A stretch of DNA of 13,690 nucleotides from Promethearchaeota archaeon (GTDB lineage Archaea; Asgardarchaeota; Lokiarchaeia; Sigyniarchaeales; SOKP01), in NCBI GenBank assembly GCA_019058015.1, contig JAHLWH010000071.1, positions 1 to 13,690 of the forward strand, in the 5' to 3' direction. Both the position numbers and the translations under genes were made by a program. Shown here piece by piece: positions 64 to 10,792 of this stretch (the stretch's first letter is position 1; each line of letters starts with the position of its first letter). The notes beneath the pieces were generated by a model. The model saw only the letters and a program-made list of their open reading frames with translations, was not told the origin of the DNA and made no database searches.

Positions 64-1647
64 AGCATATTTTGAGCCGGCGATTATATCGTCAATACGC
101 AGGATAAGGCCTGCCGCTTCGTAACCAGATTTTATGGCTTGTTTTTTTACAACGGTTGGTTCGATAACATTTAAATTCATCATATCATTCTCGATTTCTC
201 CCTTTTCCAGATCAATTCCCGCATATTTATTACCACTATGATGGGCAGCTCTTAATTTAACTAAAATATCAATTTGATCAAGACCACCATTTTCAGCAAG
301 TGTAGTCGGAACAATATCTAAACTATCAGCAAATACTTCAACAGCTAATTGTTCTCTTCCTCCAAGAGTGGCTGCAAATTTTCTTAATTGAATAGCAGTT
401 TCTACTTCTGGAGCACCTCCACCGCCAACAATATTCTCATCTTCGATAACATCTTTGGTTACGCTCAAGGCATCATGTATTGCACGTTCTGCTTCATCTA
501 CTATTAATTCTGTTCCACCACGGATTAAAATCACTACTGATTTAGGATCTTTACATTTTTCTACAAAAATCCAAGAATCTTTCATAATTTTTCTCTCTTC
601 TACTAATCCCGCATGACCAAGTTTATCTTTGCGTAAATCATTAAAACTTGTGAAAATCATACCACCTGTTGCTTTGGAAAGCTTTTCTAAATCAGATTTC
701 TTGACTCTTCTTACAGCCAATACTCCTGCTTTAGCCAAAAAATGTTGAGCCATATCATCAATACCTTTCTGACAAATTACTACATTTGCACCAGTATTGA
801 TAACGTTATCCACCATATCTCGAAGCATTTTTTCCTCCTGATCAAGATATGCTTGTATTTGCTCCGGACTTGTGATTTGCAACTTACTATCAAATTCTGT
901 TTTTTGAATTTCTATTGCAGATTGAAGTAATAAAATTTTAGCCTCTTCAACGATTTTTGGCATACCAGGATTAACGACTTCTTTATCTAAGATAATACCT
1001 TTAATTAATTTTGTGTCGTCTATGCTCTCACCTTCCTTTTTCTGGATTTGTACCTTATCTAAATCGGCTCTCCATTCTCCATTTACTTGCTCGGCAACAG
1101 AAATTATGGCATCTACGCAAATATCTGAGAGTAAATCTCTTGATTCTGAGACCAATTTAGAAGACATCGAAGTCATTGCTACATTCTTAAGTATATCCTT
1201 ATTATCTATAGTCGCTTTTTCTGAGATATTATCCAAAATTTCTAAACCTTTATCAGCGGCTTTTCTGAAACCTTCAGCAATTATTGTTGGGTGTATCTTT
1301 TGCTCTAATAATTTTTGAGAGCGTTTTAATAATTCACCAGCGAGTATTACTGCAGTAGTTGTTCCATCTCCAACCTCTGAATCTTGTGTTTTAGCGACTT
1401 CCACCATCATCTTGGCTGCTGGGTGTTGTACGTCAATCTCTTTTAAAATTGTGGCACCATCATTCGTGATTACAATGTCGCCGAATTGGTCCACTAACAT
1501 CTTATCCATTCCCTTAGGACCAAGGCTTGTTCGAATAGCCTCGGCAATTGTTATTGCAGCGGCTATGTTGTTGCTTTGAGCGTCTTTACCTTTAGTTCTT
1601 TCAGTTCCTTCTCTTAAGATTAGAACTGGTTGACCACCTAGTTGCAC
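1..1647 (-). CDS. ths: Thermosome subunit (group II chaperonin), 3' end runs off the window
   Basis: Translated by hand; absent from the ORF track because the stop lies outside the window. GTG start at 1647, with an in-frame TGA a few codons upstream and an RBS-like GAGATGA. N-terminus [24 protein letters not shown], chaperonin ATP-binding motif VGDGTTTA, C-terminal LILRIDDII followed by a Gly/Met/Pro tail. Alpha versus beta subunit cannot be determined. Confidence 0.97.
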
Positions 1648-1786: not shown

Positions 1787-1951
1787 TTATTTTGAGCGTT
1801 CTCTTCTTTTTGGTCTTAAATCCTTACTCCGGCATAGTCTACACTTTACTGCCTTAATTGGATTATGCGCTCCGCATTTTCTGCAAATTAAATGTTTAGC
1901 TAATAAATGGTAAGCTGCGATTTTCCGTTTGTAAGGATCATCAATTGGCAT
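1787..1951 (-). CDS. rpl40e: 50S ribosomal protein L40e (eL40), standalone, 54 aa
   Basis: Hand translation, below the ORF-track cutoff: MPIDDPYKRKIAAYHLLAKHLICRKCGAHNPIKAVKCRLCRSKDLRPKRRERSK*. It has the eL40 zinc-finger pattern ICRKCGAxN...A.KCR.C...LRPK. Confidence 0.96.
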   Translation of the reverse strand: MPIDDPYKRKIAAYHLLAKHLICRKCGAHNPIKAVKCRLCRSKDLRPKRRERSK

Positions 1952-2136: not shown

Positions 2137-2331
2137 ATGCCTAAAGAAATTTTTGATTCAGATCAATTCATAGAATTAAGTAAAATTGCTATTCATTGTA
2201 GAGTAAAGCGTAGGAAAGAAGATGTCAAATTAAAATTAAGGACTAAAAAGTACTTATTTACTTTTAAAACAGATTTTAAAACTGCAGAAGATCTATTAAA
2301 TAAAATAGATTGTTCAATTATAGAATTGTGA
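2137..2331 (+). CDS. rpl38e: 50S ribosomal protein L38e (eL38)
   Basis: 64-aa basic protein. MPKEI.D...F start and K.KLRTKKYLFT motif are characteristic of eL38. Confidence 0.9.
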   Translation: MPKEIFDSDQFIELSKIAIHCRVKRRKEDVKLKLRTKKYLFTFKTDFKTAEDLLNKIDCSIIEL

Positions 2332-6966: not shown

Positions 6967-7866
6967 ATGATCGAAGATTATTTAAAAGCTGGAAAGGCCA
7001 CTGTAAGTGCAAAAAAGTTGGCACGTCAAATCACCAAACCTGGAACTCCATTAATTGAAATTTGTAATAAATGTGAAGAAAAAATAAAAGAAAATGGAGC
7101 AGAACTGGCATTTCCTTTAAATATTTCATTGAATGAAATCGCAGCCCACTATAGTTCTCCAATTGATGATCAGAGTGTAGTACCTGAAGAAGGTTTACTA
7201 AAATTAGACTTTGGAGCACATGTTAATGGATACATCGCTGATACAGCCATCACAATAAATTTAAACCAAGATAAAAAATTTGATACATTTATTATAGCTG
7301 CAGAAGAAGCATTAGAAGCAGCAATTGAAAACTTTCGACCCGGTGTTAAATTATTTGAGATAGGAGAAAGAATTTCAGAGAAGATCATTAAATATGGATT
7401 AAAACCGATAATGAACCTTGGAGGACACAGATTATTACAATATACTTTACATGCAGGGGAATTTGTTCCTAATTTTAAAGATAAAACTCATAATCAAGAA
7501 ATTCATATTGGAGATGCTTATGCGATTGAACCATTTTCCACAAACGGGGTTGGACGTGTAAAAGATGGAAAAAATAGTTATATTTATAGATTTCATAAAG
7601 TTATCAAAAAAAATATATCGTATGAATTAAAAACTGCTATAAACCAAATCAAACAAAATTTTTCTACACTTCCATTTAGCCCCCGAGCGGTTTTAAAGAA
7701 AAAGATATTACCAAAAAATAAAATAATGCCAATTATAAATCGCTTAGCTGGTAAAGGAGCTCTTAAACATTATCCAATTCTTGTCGAAGTAAGAAATGGA
7801 TTTGTCGCACACGCAGAGCATACGGTTGTGGTCAATGAAAATGAAACAATAATAACAACTAAGTAA
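6967..7866 (+). CDS. map: Methionine aminopeptidase type II
   Basis: AFPLNISLNEIAAHY, KLDFGAHVNGYIADTA, NLGGH, AIEPF and AHAEHTV metal-ligand motifs. Confidence 0.97.
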   Translation: MIEDYLKAGKATVSAKKLARQITKPGTPLIEICNKCEEKIKENGAELAFPLNISLNEIAAHYSSPIDDQSVVPEEGLLKLDFGAHVNGYIADTAITINLNQDKKFDTFIIAAEEALEAAIENFRPGVKLFEIGERISEKIIKYGLKPIMNLGGHRLLQYTLHAGEFVPNFKDKTHNQEIHIGDAYAIEPFSTNGVGRVKDGKNSYIYRFHKVIKKNISYELKTAINQIKQNFSTLPFSPRAVLKKKILPKNKIMPIINRLAGKGALKHYPILVEVRNGFVAHAEHTVVVNENETIITTK

Positions 7867-7885
7867 CAAATTATATAAAGAAAAT

Positions 7886-8752
7886 TTGAAAGAAAATTTG
7901 AAAAATTATAATAAGTTATCTTTAATCATTCTCTGTGCAGGAGAAGGAAAAAGAATTCAAAAATTCTTTCCAAAAATTCCTAAATCTTTAATAAAAATAA
8001 AAAATCTCGATAAATCAATAGTAGAATATACTATAACGCAATTTTTAAATCTAAATTTTAATAAAATTTATCTTATTTATGGATATAAAGCGAACATTTT
8101 TATCAAGTATATTAAAGATTTGGAATCAAAAAATAAAATTGATAACTTTCACTTAAATAATTCAATATTTCCTGTAAATGCGGAAAAGAATTACCAAAAA
8201 GGACCATTTCATTCATTTTTGGAGATTTTAAACGAACCTAATTTTATTATCGATGATAATTTCTTCTTATTAATTCCTGGAGATACAATTTTTGAAAATG
8301 AATTACTTAATTCAATACTTGGATACATTAAAGAAAAAATAGGGAAGAAGATTAATATACCAATTATTTTTTATCGTGAATTTGATAAAAATTTAAAAGA
8401 AATTTATAAATCGAAAAAATGTTTTTCTATTTCTGTTGTAAATATATTGAAGGAAAAAAATAATGAATTCTTAAAATCTATAGAGCAGATTGATATTAAA
8501 TCTAATAAATTAGAAAAATCCATTTTTCAAGTGATTCCAATTTATTTCTTCCCTTCTAAATTTTTAGAAGAAATAAGAGATTCGATTGATATTAATCTAG
8601 ATGACTATTCAAATTTGACGGAATTCATCAATAGTGTCTATTTAAAAGAAAATCAAGTTCTTACTCATGAGATAAATAAATCTTTAAATTTTTTTGAAGT
8701 AGATACTATAGAAGATTTACAGTTTCTAGAAGCAAATTATAAAGTAAATTGA
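7886..8752 (+). CDS. Nucleotidyltransferase (NTP_transferase / GT-A fold) family protein, substrate unknown
   Basis: IILCAGEGKRI......PKSLI N-terminal signature, PGDTIF and C-terminal EVDTIEDL; TTG start. Confidence 0.85.
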   Translation: MKENLKNYNKLSLIILCAGEGKRIQKFFPKIPKSLIKIKNLDKSIVEYTITQFLNLNFNKIYLIYGYKANIFIKYIKDLESKNKIDNFHLNNSIFPVNAEKNYQKGPFHSFLEILNEPNFIIDDNFFLLIPGDTIFENELLNSILGYIKEKIGKKINIPIIFYREFDKNLKEIYKSKKCFSISVVNILKEKNNEFLKSIEQIDIKSNKLEKSIFQVIPIYFFPSKFLEEIRDSIDINLDDYSNLTEFINSVYLKENQVLTHEINKSLNFFEVDTIEDLQFLEANYKVN

Positions 8753-8763
8753 TTTGAAGATTT

Positions 8764-8772
8764 AAAAAAAAA
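8764..8772 (-). terminator. Oligo-T (T9) archaeal-type terminator for the candidate minus-strand ncRNA
   Basis: Plus strand A9 at 8764-8772 directly abuts G5 at 8773-8777. The minus strand reads ...TACTATTATCCCCC-TTTTTTTTT, immediately after the 3' arm of the terminal helix. Confidence 0.6.
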
Positions 8773-9406
8773 GGGGGATAATAGTAGTTTTGCATTAGCA
8801 ATCTTCAGAATTAACTGAATCCTCTTTTTTATATAGATTTTAAATGACAATTGTGGAAATTTTGGAAGATTCTAATTCGTTTATCATTCTGGGATTTTTG
8901 GATATATCAGGATTATATATCTAAGATTTTTTTTCGAGTAGAATTTGTATTTTATTATTTCAGAGAAGTCAGTATTATGATTCTCTGCGTCAGAGTTTGG
9001 TAAACATTGCATATTATAATGATTGAAAACTAATTTTCACCGAATTTTACCATTATACAGTGAATCAAGAACTTATGCGGTTAATGTCTCTATATTTGAT
9101 TCTCTGCAGCCGATTTTTATTTTAAAGAGAGGTTTTTTGATGGCTTTAGGTTTATTTGAAAGGAAACTAATTTTCTAATGACTTATCTTATTGCCTATGA
9201 ATCAGTTACTTATATCAGAGAAGAATTAATTTGGTTCTCTATATTAAAGTTTGTTTAAGAAAGACTTTTTATTGATAGAATTTTTGATTTAATTGAATAA
9301 AAGTCTAGTTTTTGGATTAATTTTTGACGAATTTAAAATAATAATTATCTAAGGTTCCCGAAATTTTGTTTGGATATCTAACCAATGCAAACGGATACTA
9401 TTATCC
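8773..9406 (-). ncRNA. Candidate ~634-nt structured non-coding RNA, family unrecognised
   Basis: No ORF of 60 aa or more in the track. Perfect 11-bp end pairing (8776-8786 with 9396-9406) plus an 8-bp helix (8789-8796 with 9384-9391) that extends to 11 bp with G-U pairs on the minus strand. At least six internal hairpins. TATA centred ~26 nt upstream of G9406 and T9 directly downstream. Strand assignment rests mainly on promoter and terminator geometry; some internal wobble pairs favour plus. Confidence 0.68.
9020..9241. repeat. Degenerate ~137-nt direct duplication within the candidate ncRNA
   Basis: gaaaactaattttc 9025 / ggaaactaattttc 9162, tgaatca 9061 / 9198 and acttat 9071 / 9208 are all offset by 137. 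tgattctct 9097 / tggttctct 9232 is offset by 135. Hand count gives 35/57 identities for 9020-9076 versus 9157-9213. Confidence 0.7.
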
Positions 9407-9425
9407 AAATAATATAAGAAAATTC

Positions 9426-9439
9426 ATATTTATAAATAT
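9426..9439. promoter_or_regulatory. Palindromic TATA box (ATATTTATAAATAT), probable bidirectional promoter
   Basis: TTTATAAA at 9429-9436 reads the same on both strands. Its centre is ~26 nt from minus-strand G9406 (ncRNA 5' end) and ~26 nt from plus-strand G9459, just ahead of ATG 9481. Confidence 0.6.
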
Positions 9440-9480
9440 TTAGTAAATATTTTAATAAGGTCTTATTATATTAAATCCAT

Positions 9481-9882
9481 ATGAGTGAAAGTTCTGATAA
9501 AATACCAATTAACATAAATATTTTTAACTGTGGAACAATTAAGGCAACTTTTTATAGACATTTAAGTCCTTTTTCAGTTATGGAAATTTTAGAAAAATTA
9601 CCGCTTACTATTAGGGGGAGATTTAATTTTATAGGTCCGAAGACTCATTGGATGCTTTCCCAAATAGGTATATCAGTCGGTCCTGATTCGAAGGCAACGC
9701 TAACGGTTGAGAAGGGAGATATTGTTTATTGCCCCCAGACTGACAGTGTTTATATCTTTATAGAGAATGATAAACTTCCAACAAAAATGAATAAAATTGG
9801 GAAAATTAATAATATAGAGGAGTTAAATTTATTTTCTAATGCAAAGAATGGAACTAATACCGAATTAAAATTAAGTAATTAA
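9481..9882 (+). CDS. Cyclophilin-like fold protein (TM1367/DUF369-like)
   Basis: 133 aa. RHLSPFSV.EILEKLPL, VEKGDIVYCPQTDSVYIF and MNKIGKI match the archaeal cyclophilin-like pattern. Confidence 0.8.
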   Translation: MSESSDKIPININIFNCGTIKATFYRHLSPFSVMEILEKLPLTIRGRFNFIGPKTHWMLSQIGISVGPDSKATLTVEKGDIVYCPQTDSVYIFIENDKLPTKMNKIGKINNIEELNLFSNAKNGTNTELKLSN

Positions 9883-9890
9883 ATGTTAAT

Positions 9891-10697
9891 TTATTTTTCT
9901 TTCTTTTGCCGATCTTCCAAATATCGACTCCAATCGAACCCAAATATAAACATCATAATTGTTAAAGTCAAAATTAACATAATACCTTCGATTATCACAT
10001 CTTGAATTGGAGTTAATTCTGCACCAATCCCTAAAAGTCCTAGTCTCACCAATACTGGCCAAGTGCAATAGAATAAAGTCGTAAAAGTCTTCCCAATCCA
10101 TCCTGGAATAAGAGCTTTATACCATTTATATTTTAGTAGACCAAGAGGGATAAAGAGTAAATCATCTGGAGCAGGAGTAAGAGCAAATAGGAAGATATAT
10201 AGGGGAGTGCGTTTCTCATTTTCTAAGACCAATTTTCCAAACCCACTTAAATTCTTCATGCTTTTGGAACTTGAAGCATCTATTAATTTCCCAGCCCCAT
10301 ATCCAGCGATATAGCCAGCTAACTCTCCAACAGCACAACCTAATCCCCCAAATACGACAAAACCCATAATTTCCATCCAAAAATTACTATTAGCTAATAT
10401 TTCTTCGAATAATAAGCCCTGATTTCCGTATTTCATTAATAATGAATTTGATAATGTAAATAAAATGAATGGAAAAGGAATTGGGAAGCCGATACTTGCA
10501 GATCCTATTAAGCAAACTAAAAAAGCAATAAATACTCCCCAGAAAAAATTAGTATCTTCTGTTAGAATCACAAAAGAAGAGCGCACTGATATTACAAAGT
10601 CTTGGAATTCAGGAAAAACAAAAAAACACAAAAGATAAGCAGAAACTATAACGTAAAAAAATATAAAAACATATAATAATCGCTTGGATAGGGTCAT
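9891..10697 (-). CDS. DedA/VTT (SNARE-associated) family membrane protein
   Basis: Multiple hydrophobic helices, GGLGCAVGELAGYIAGYG and FLFALTPAPDDLLFIPLGLLKY...LIPGWIGK. Confidence 0.82.
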   Translation of the reverse strand: MTLSKRLLYVFIFFYVIVSAYLLCFFVFPEFQDFVISVRSSFVILTEDTNFFWGVFIAFLVCLIGSASIGFPIPFPFILFTLSNSLLMKYGNQGLLFEEILANSNFWMEIMGFVVFGGLGCAVGELAGYIAGYGAGKLIDASSSKSMKNLSGFGKLVLENEKRTPLYIFLFALTPAPDDLLFIPLGLLKYKWYKALIPGWIGKTFTTLFYCTWPVLVRLGLLGIGAELTPIQDVIIEGIMLILTLTIMMFIFGFDWSRYLEDRQKKEK

Positions 10698-10792
10698 GAT
10701 TAATTAAAATTATTTTGAGTTATTAATCTTATTTAGTAATGATTCAAGCTCAAATTCTCAAACACAATGCTGATTGAAAAAATTCTAATGAT

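Follow-up and report, generated by a model that had tools for sequence, protein, structure and literature searches.

Among archaeal stable RNAs, the signal recognition particle (SRP) RNA and the RNA of RNase P are encoded by single-copy genes of a common build, in which a TATA box lies about 26 nt upstream, the two ends pair in a closing helix and the transcript finishes in oligo-U, and both are present in RNA libraries; oligo-T is the archaeal termination signal. Large structured RNAs without known function are, to our knowledge, rare, each of those solved so far (OLE, GOLLD, ROOL) has opened new biology, and no comparable orphan class of large structured RNA is known to us in Archaea. OLE has linked partner genes. 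In two studies, the expression of OLE is described as exceptionally high (PMC3413148) and OLE, GOLLD and ROOL are described as forming homo-oligomers (PMC12286853). Here we analysed a 13,690-nt stretch of a Promethearchaeota archaeon genome (contig JAHLWH010000071.1, hereafter the window), which has a G+C content of about 29% and an archaeal gene content, and in which the minus strand from position 9406 to about 8764 very probably is a single-copy gene for a stable and highly structured non-coding RNA (ncRNA) of a previously undescribed family.

This gene shares the build of the archaeal SRP and RNase P RNA genes, including the single copy and the presence in RNA libraries, but its product is about twice the size of theirs and belongs to one family only, whereas theirs are universal. 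With OLE, GOLLD and ROOL it has in common a length of several hundred nucleotides, many conserved helices, a restriction to one lineage and the lack of an obvious function. Those RNAs are, however, bacterial or borne by phages and plasmids, whereas this one is archaeal and chromosomal, lies in a housekeeping block and has no partner protein gene beside it. A further analogy is to telomerase RNA, 7SK and RNase MRP RNA, with their conserved core at the ends, closing helix and centre of variable length (362-632 nt for the RNAs described here), although no Rfam homology signal links them to this RNA. We have high confidence in the existence of the gene, in its conservation, covariation and non-coding nature, and in its presence in RNA libraries.

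Layout of the gene and its occurrence in relatives

The ends of the gene were placed by the conserved spacing between TATA box and first G, by the terminal helix and by the T-run, all of them features at sequence level. The elements of the locus are the following.

8764..9406, minus strand: RNA gene; the predicted transcript begins at G9406, ends inside the U-run and measures about 631-643 nt
9429..9436, minus strand: TATA box TTTATAAA, its centre 26.5 nt upstream of the first G (G9406)
9396..9406, minus strand: 5' strand of helix P1, GGAUAAUAGUA, pairing with 8776-8786
8776..8786, minus strand: 3' strand of helix P1, UACUAUUAUCC, pairing with 9396-9406
9382..9387, minus strand: CAUUGG motif, better conserved than any other internal sequence of the family
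9381..9391, minus strand: 5' strand of helix 2, UUUGCAUUGGU, pairing with 8789-8799; genus-specific
8789..8799, minus strand: 3' strand of helix 2, GCUAAUGCAAA, pairing with 9381-9391
9368..9392, minus strand: tentative alternative local hairpin of GUUUG (9392-9388), loop CAUUGGUUAGAUAUC and CAAAC (9372-9368), which competes with helix 2
8764..8775, minus strand: terminator, CCC and U9, as read from the letters
8839..9392, no strand assigned: cover by nine contig pieces from four metatranscriptome runs
7886..8752, plus strand: gene for a MobA-like nucleoside triphosphate transferase (NTP-transferase), convergent neighbour (Pfam PF12804, PF00483)
9481..9882, plus strand: cyclophilin-like gene, divergent neighbour (Pfam PF18050)

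Read from 9406, the minus strand begins GGAUAAUAGUA-UCCG-UUUGCAUUGGU and ends with GCUAAUGCAAA (8799-8789), AC, UACUAUUAUCC (8786-8776), CCC (8775-8773) and U9 (8772-8764). The outer arms form an 11-nt perfect inverted repeat (8776-8786 / 9396-9406) that was also recovered by a repeat search. An A-rich stretch resembling a transcription factor B recognition element (BRE) precedes the TATA box. In an alignment of 26 sequences (A6) the columns A.ATTTA.A are invariant and keep the same distance from the 5' G, and AAGATTTAAATA is the form of the TATA box in most relatives, again at a fixed distance upstream of this G. A conserved TATA box about 25-27 nt upstream and an oligo-T terminator downstream are thus both found, which points to an independent archaeal ncRNA transcription unit. 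The initial annotation, made from the letters of the window, had described these ends, helices, TATA box and CCC-U9 correctly. It had also fairly called the locus the only large gap between open reading frames (ORFs), the other ORF-poor stretch (1648-2343) holding small genes for L40e (1787-1951, minus strand, PF01020, 23.5 bits) and L38e (2137-2331, plus strand, PF01781, 32.3 bits). It is these L40e and L38e stretches of the query that are matched at the DNA level in other genera of the family.

In a BLAST-type DNA search, the full stretch was recovered from no more than three genomes, all of the same genus and 89-92% identical, the remaining matches being short and at chance level. More distant members were reached through the convergent neighbour. 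Homologues of the NTP-transferase, which are 28-46% identical outside the four closest genomes, are present in 51 of 61 family genomes, and in 27 of 30 loci an ORF-free gap of at least 300 nt lies directly downstream of them. In 25 of the 30 loci, the strand opposite the NTP-transferase shows at the end of this gap ..CUAUUGUCC, followed by a few pyrimidines and then a T-run; four more have variants of this end, and the last locus is a contig that is too short. A run of at least five T within 8 nt of the 3' arm was likewise found in the expected place in 25 of the 30 syntenic loci. Upstream, at a distance of 437-632 nt, stands a complementary 5' arm (GGACAAUAG..), with AAGATTTAAATA preceding it at a fixed distance. 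The homologues measure 362-632 nt, the RNA of this genus being about 130 nt longer than most members, and further members were found in genera without a transferase match (g4, g7 and g12).

Two models served to search more widely, R1 for the 3' domain and R2, a sequence model, for the promoter and 5' domain. R1 matched 89 of 131 family genomes (36/42 in genus g2, 47/53 in g11, 5/8 in g6 and 1/1 in g13) and gave no match in 19 genomes of three sister families. R2 matched 115 of 126 family genomes, from all 13 genera and with up to 60.5 bits, and in other families of the class 6 of 24 genomes at 19-24 bits only; across the phylum, it matched 24 of 25 family genomes and 3 of 125 others (21-25 bits). 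In the sister family f2, all five genomes keep the pair of MetAP and NTP-transferase genes, and no ORF-free gap of at least 200 nt follows the pair in four of them, the fifth locus ending too early. These negatives hold for models R1 and R2 in the genomes sampled, and as far as searched the RNA appears confined to one family of Promethearchaeia. The earlier suggestion of an undescribed Asgard ncRNA therefore stands as regards its novelty, there being no Rfam or literature match, and has to be narrowed as regards its range, which by the searches made is one family and not the Asgard archaea as a whole.

Several weaker candidates were rejected. The matches outside the family to R2 (five weak ones, that in G222 left out) or to the search pattern, at L114, L115, L148-L150, L165 and L166, proved to be promoters or coding sequence, as did one weak R2 match inside the family (L167). 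A loose 5' pattern matched 148 of 151 genomes, mostly at random, and was too unspecific to be of use. In one of the rejected loci, that of a sister-family genome (L149, G037:C84, about 95-215, plus strand), AAGATTTAAATAA is followed about 24 nt later by GGAGAGUA...UACUCUCC and a pyrimidine-rich tail. With its paired ends and a length of about 70 nt, this unit resembles a further small RNA that has escaped annotation; it does not belong to the present family.

Terminal inverted repeats of 11 nt, or of about 25 nt with the second helix included, are also what a miniature inverted-repeat transposable element (MITE) would show. The element is, however, present once in its own genome and in nearly all relatives (one R1 match per genome in 87 of 89 matched genomes), it occupies a fixed place in a conserved gene block across genera, and its arms change by compensatory substitutions. 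Copy number and synteny refute the MITE reading, to which we give practically no weight, and they agree with the earlier expectation that the element would not occur as dispersed copies.

Two genomes carry two copies, G015 (L151 on C87, L152 on C151) and G139 (C57, C117). In G015, one copy is complete, with about 534 nt and the arms GGACAUUAGU / ACUAAUGUCC, and the other has the promoter and 5' domain and no matching 3' arm within 800 nt; paralogy, decay of the copy or contamination may account for it. At L029 (G073:C170), only the 3' part of the RNA lies next to the transferase, and elsewhere in the same locus there is a candidate for the full-length RNA, 551 nt long and divergent in its 3' arm, an arrangement that may reflect rearrangement or duplication.

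Paired regions and conserved motifs

P1 covaries. When 17 different combinations of 5' and 3' ends were compared, pairing was kept in 15-17 of them at positions 1-10 and in 13 at position 11, with five pair types at position 4 (UA, CG, AU, UG, GC), four at position 10 (UA, GC, UG, AU) and two at position 2 (GC and AU), and in one further member A-U has become U-A at position 6. In an alignment of 38 sequences from the large genera, both sides have changed in 20 sequences at position 10 and in 12 at position 11. The terminal helix that had been proposed as a check on syntenic intervals from relatives is thus present there and covaries, and the earlier description of a non-coding structured RNA gene with promoter, paired ends and oligo-U largely holds.

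A partial structure of seven helices and 43 pairs, drawn by hand from one sequence, was then scored on the same 38 sequences. Of its cells, 84.7% were paired, compared to 79.0 +/- 0.5% in shuffled alignments and 36-49% in slid controls; 88 cells had changed on both sides, compared to 45 +/- 5 in shuffles, and the covariation score was 0.176, compared to 0.095, none of 500 shuffles reaching the observed value in any of the three measures. The best internal helix is AGUGC/GCACU, with both-sided changes at all five pairs, and the adjoining GUUCC/GGAGC shows them at three of five. The 3' helix GCUUUGAU/AUCGGAGC scarcely varies, with 96.4% of its cells paired, and its two U.G pairs are kept in 38 and 35 of the 38 sequences. 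Since these pairs would read A.C on the other strand, and since the promoter and the T-run lie on the minus strand, the RNA is assigned to the latter. Taken over P1 and the seven helices, base pairs are kept through compensatory changes, as expected of a structured RNA.

Folding energies point in the same direction. Comparison with shuffled controls, proposed earlier as a check, gave for the minimum free energy fold of the minus strand, which contains both terminal helices, -97.6 kcal/mol with a z-score of -2.25 and none of 20 shuffles as stable, whereas the plus strand gave a z-score of -1.46 with 2 of 20 shuffles as stable; the check came out on the expected side, if by a modest amount. In 12 of 14 homologues the z-score is lower on the RNA strand, with a median of -2.97 versus -2.19 for the other strand. 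RNAalifold on the 3' domain alone gave nothing useful, and column-pair scanning and searches for best local stems (P2, H1) were confounded by AU-richness, stems of 4-6 bp being expected by chance; the H1 stems matched or beat between 1 and 199 of 200 shuffles.

Of the two stacked closing helices in the initial annotation, the outer one (P1) is family-wide and covaries, whereas helix 2 is kept only in this genus. It is invariant in four close genomes; in a fifth, which belongs to the genus but is more distant, pairing is kept at 10 of 11 positions, with one break and four one-sided changes, three of which are wobble exchanges (UA to UG, GU to GC, GC to GU). Outside the genus, AUCGGAGC adjoins the 3' strand of P1 and pairs elsewhere, and no equivalent 3' partner for helix 2 was found.

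The 5' strand of helix 2 includes the CAUUGG motif, which is present in 32 of 32 sequences (three of them with CAAUGG), C20, A21, U23, G24 and G25 of this region being invariant in a 28-sequence alignment (A3). In other genera, short stems of changing sequence surround the motif (UUUUG/CAAAA, UUAUG/CAUAA, AAAGUC/GACUUU), and we tentatively suggest that CAUUGG can sit in the loop of such a local stem, with the proviso that stems of 4-5 bp are expected by chance. This placement, possible in most genera, and the fact that the complement of the most conserved internal element contains AUG would fit a trans-acting antisense regulator, in which a looped CAUUGGUU would pair with ..AACCAAUG.., for instance around the start codons of target mRNAs, and the rest of the molecule would provide stability. 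A length of 360-630 nt, several covarying helices and a conserved 3' domain nevertheless exceed what a seed-presenting small RNA needs, and the motif forms a helix with the 3' region in this genus, so that we consider an antisense regulator unlikely, though not far-fetched. As to loop-loop pairing, complements to CAUUGG were found in 19 of 32 sequences, about the estimated chance level.

The 3' domain (e.g. L045:1361-1468, L034:1372-1474) opens with the stretch AAUAG(G/A)AGC, a second occurrence of the 5' end of the molecule that is likewise complementary to the 3' end, AAUAGAAGC / GCUUCUAUU forming a perfect 9-bp match in L045. This pairing and P1 would exclude each other. Of 11 sequences inspected by eye, 7 agree with the pairing, which would be a switch or a route to intermolecular pairing. 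With both the 5' end and the internal AAUAG complementary to the 3' end, strand exchange between molecules would be possible, and the RNA might form an RNA-only assembly that oligomerises by intermolecular pairing, like the bacterial ornate RNAs OLE, GOLLD and ROOL, which it resembles in size, lineage restriction and lack of an assigned function. It has no sequence or model match to these three, however, and the alternative pairing, read from sequence only, leaves four of the eleven checked sequences unaccounted for; such an assembly seems improbable.

The additional length in this genus falls in the centre of the molecule. A 21-nt motif (UGAUUCUCUG.. on the plus strand) occurs there in three copies, at 8978-8998, 9097-9117 and 9232-9252, spaced by 119 and 135 nt; on the RNA strand it reads CAGAGAAUCA and can pair with a nearby UUCUCUG. 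This suggests that the extra length arose by repetition of a hairpin module. No tandem repeats of note were found in the stretch.

Known RNA families, coding potential and RNA libraries

The search of Rfam that had been set as a check returned no family match, either for the window or for 18 homologous loci. At gathering thresholds, Rfam 15 gave 0 matches in the window; at E-values up to 10, positions 8600-9600 gave four chance-level matches around the gap and none inside the RNA, and the 18 homologous loci (61,328 bases) gave four weak matches to four different families, all outside the RNA, including the only ones of small nucleolar RNA (snoRNA) type. Neither the archaeal RNase P RNA model (RF00373) nor the archaeal SRP RNA model (RF01857) matched at E-values up to 10 in 8600-9600 or in the 18 loci. 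The genome has both RNAs elsewhere, 5 kb apart on contig C111 (loci L051 and L054): the RNase P RNA at 22989-23316 (63.3 bits, E 4e-17, full model length) and the SRP RNA at 28122-28443 (79.4 bits, E 7e-18). The initial annotation had thus rightly excluded both identities, and its estimate of about twice the size of SRP RNA agrees with a predicted 631-643 nt versus about 322 nt for the SRP RNA of the same genome.

Both of these genuine RNAs score below the Rfam gathering cut-offs (63.3 versus 84 bits for RNase P RNA, 79.4 versus 96.5 bits for SRP RNA). The models are thus weak in this AT-rich lineage, and a very divergent member of a known family (a paralogue of RNase P or MRP RNA, or an SRP-, transfer-messenger RNA (tmRNA)- or snoRNA-like RNA) could have been missed. 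Yet the RNase P and SRP RNAs are still found at E-values of about 1e-17 and over their full length, no family appears inside the RNA at an E-value of 10, ARAGORN found 0 tRNA or tmRNA genes in 12 loci, and 28-32 aligned ends inspected by eye have no conserved C (RUGAUGA), D (CUGA) or ACA box next to P1, their 3' end being ..UUGUCC. We regard a divergent known RNA as very improbable. A likeness of AUUGGUUUA to a tRNA D-loop is unsupported. The OLE, GOLLD, ROOL, HEARO and raiA families, which are contained in Rfam 15, gave 0 matches at gathering thresholds and none at E-values up to 10. A full-text search of the Asgard-archaeal literature, covering listings and abstracts, returned no description of such an RNA. 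We class the RNA as a new family; no defining feature of any family considered was found in it.

Nor does the locus look like a gene for a protein. There is no minus-strand ORF of at least 50 amino acids in the gap. Among the homologues, the longest ATG-initiated ORFs on the RNA strand measure 5-64 amino acids and are not conserved in place, and for the opposite strand the median length of the longest ORF is 40 amino acids, again without conservation. The two plus-strand ORFs with TTG starts in the window, of 50 amino acids (8851-9003) and 51 amino acids (9023-9178), have no Pfam match; the start motif of the former is missing in the other three close relatives, and two of four close relatives have a 2-nt gap that, by count from the alignment, lies inside the latter.

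Parts of the stretch are contained in 20 public runs, four of which are metatranscriptomes from sediments and vents. The nine contig pieces from these four (X17 and X18 of study P2, X19 and X20 of study P10) all lie on 8839-9392, are 90-99% alike and have a word depth of 5-496, which shows that RNA libraries contain the sequence of the gene or of its counterpart in close relatives.

An AT-rich, intergenic stretch with three copies of a 21-nt repeat might instead be a gene in decay, or DNA that is conserved but not transcribed, for instance an origin of replication or an extended regulatory spacer. Substitutions that preserve pairing, U.G pairs possible on one strand only among them, are sensible for RNA and not for DNA, promoter and terminator bracket the unit exactly, and contigs from RNA libraries lie on it; moreover, no Orc1/Cdc6 gene was found among the neighbours and no ORF remnants were found. 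Non-transcribed DNA is hence an explanation that we find hardly credible.

A number of observations weigh against a structured RNA gene or limit the evidence for it. The fold z-score of the window's own RNA (-2.25) is modest, and the P1 repeat is one of 43 inverted pairs of at least 10 nt in an AT-rich kilobase; it is the comparison with relatives, and not the repeat or the fold alone, that raises the gene above chance. Within the genus even this comparison is uninformative, since the gap diverges at about the rate of third codon positions of its neighbours (conservation of 0.886-0.927 versus 0.836-0.963). RNAalifold on global alignments recovers P1 only. The internal helices were drawn by hand on a single sequence, so that the slid control is biased towards them, related sequences are able to beat shuffles without any structure, and a first hand-drawn structure of the 3' domain on a plain MAFFT alignment scored 68.9% versus 68.5% in shuffles. 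The RNA-library contigs carry neither strand nor ends, may include DNA carry-over and come from runs picked for containing this stretch. When they were compared with 7600-10700, nothing covered 7600-8743 or 9472-10700, but these flanks are no evidence of silence, because the runs were picked by this stretch and compared as contigs.

Gene neighbourhood, proposed role and significance

Genes in the window include those for thermosome, PTH2, TruD, AspRS, MetAP, NTP-transferase, a cyclophilin-like protein, DedA, Alba and JAB. Across genera the conserved block comprises TruD, a DNA methylase (in most), AspRS, MetAP, NTP-transferase, the RNA, the cyclophilin-like protein, DedA, Alba, JAB, a small kinase and phosphoribosyl pyrophosphate (PRPP) synthase. 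The NTP-transferase gene neighbours the RNA gene in most genera. Genus g4 (L171, G019:C65:17200-25288) lacks the NTP-transferase and has the RNA gene directly between the MetAP and cyclophilin-like genes, so that the RNA does not depend on this neighbour. At the divergent position, a cyclophilin-like Pfam match was found in two of six annotated neighbourhoods and an ORF of similar size without Pfam match in three more; in g7, both ORFs on the other side of the RNA lack a Pfam match. We read the linkage of the RNA with its neighbours as conserved gene order and not as functional pairing.

According to the mechanism that we propose, transcription would start about 26 nt downstream of the consensus TATA box and stop in the oligo-U run, and the 5' and 3' ends of the RNA would pair in the 11-bp helix P1, closing the molecule. 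Four parts are conserved: close to the 5' end the motif CAUUGG(U/A)UU; a stretch rich in U (as many as 12 U, within nt 61-200 for most members); a long-range helix in the centre, which reads GUUCC..AGUGC / GCACU..GGAGC in the large genera; and, adjoining P1, a 3' hairpin domain closed by GCUUUGAU / AUCGGAGC. The centre varies in length and is expanded in this genus, where CAUUGG is also re-paired with the 3' region.

Given the conserved ends, loops, internal loops and U-rich stretch and a centre that tolerates a length change of 270 nt, we tentatively suggest that the RNA may act in trans as an abundant scaffold, either as part of a ribonucleoprotein (RNP) or as a scaffold of RNA, although other roles taken together should be given somewhat more weight. 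Proteins or other RNAs would dock at its conserved loops and internal loops, and its variable centre would tolerate insertions as in SRP, telomerase or OLE-type RNAs. This scaffold mechanism is an inference, and the housekeeping gene block gives no functional hint.

The finding also bears on how this lineage is annotated. Because even its RNase P and SRP RNAs fall below the Rfam gathering thresholds and are missed by them, its RNA inventory is under-annotated. For the RNA described here, more than 50 distinct sequences, a partial structure supported by covariation and two working search models make it a testable target. We consider the chances about evenly balanced that it is the founding member of a new archaeal class of structured RNA, large, abundant and limited to one family of Promethearchaeia, which would be the RNA subunit of a so far unknown RNP, a ribozyme or a self-assembling particle and which may switch between P1 and the AAUAG pairing. 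The RNA occurs in the closest archaeal relatives of eukaryotes, where an entire family of more than 100 species-level genomes has kept it.

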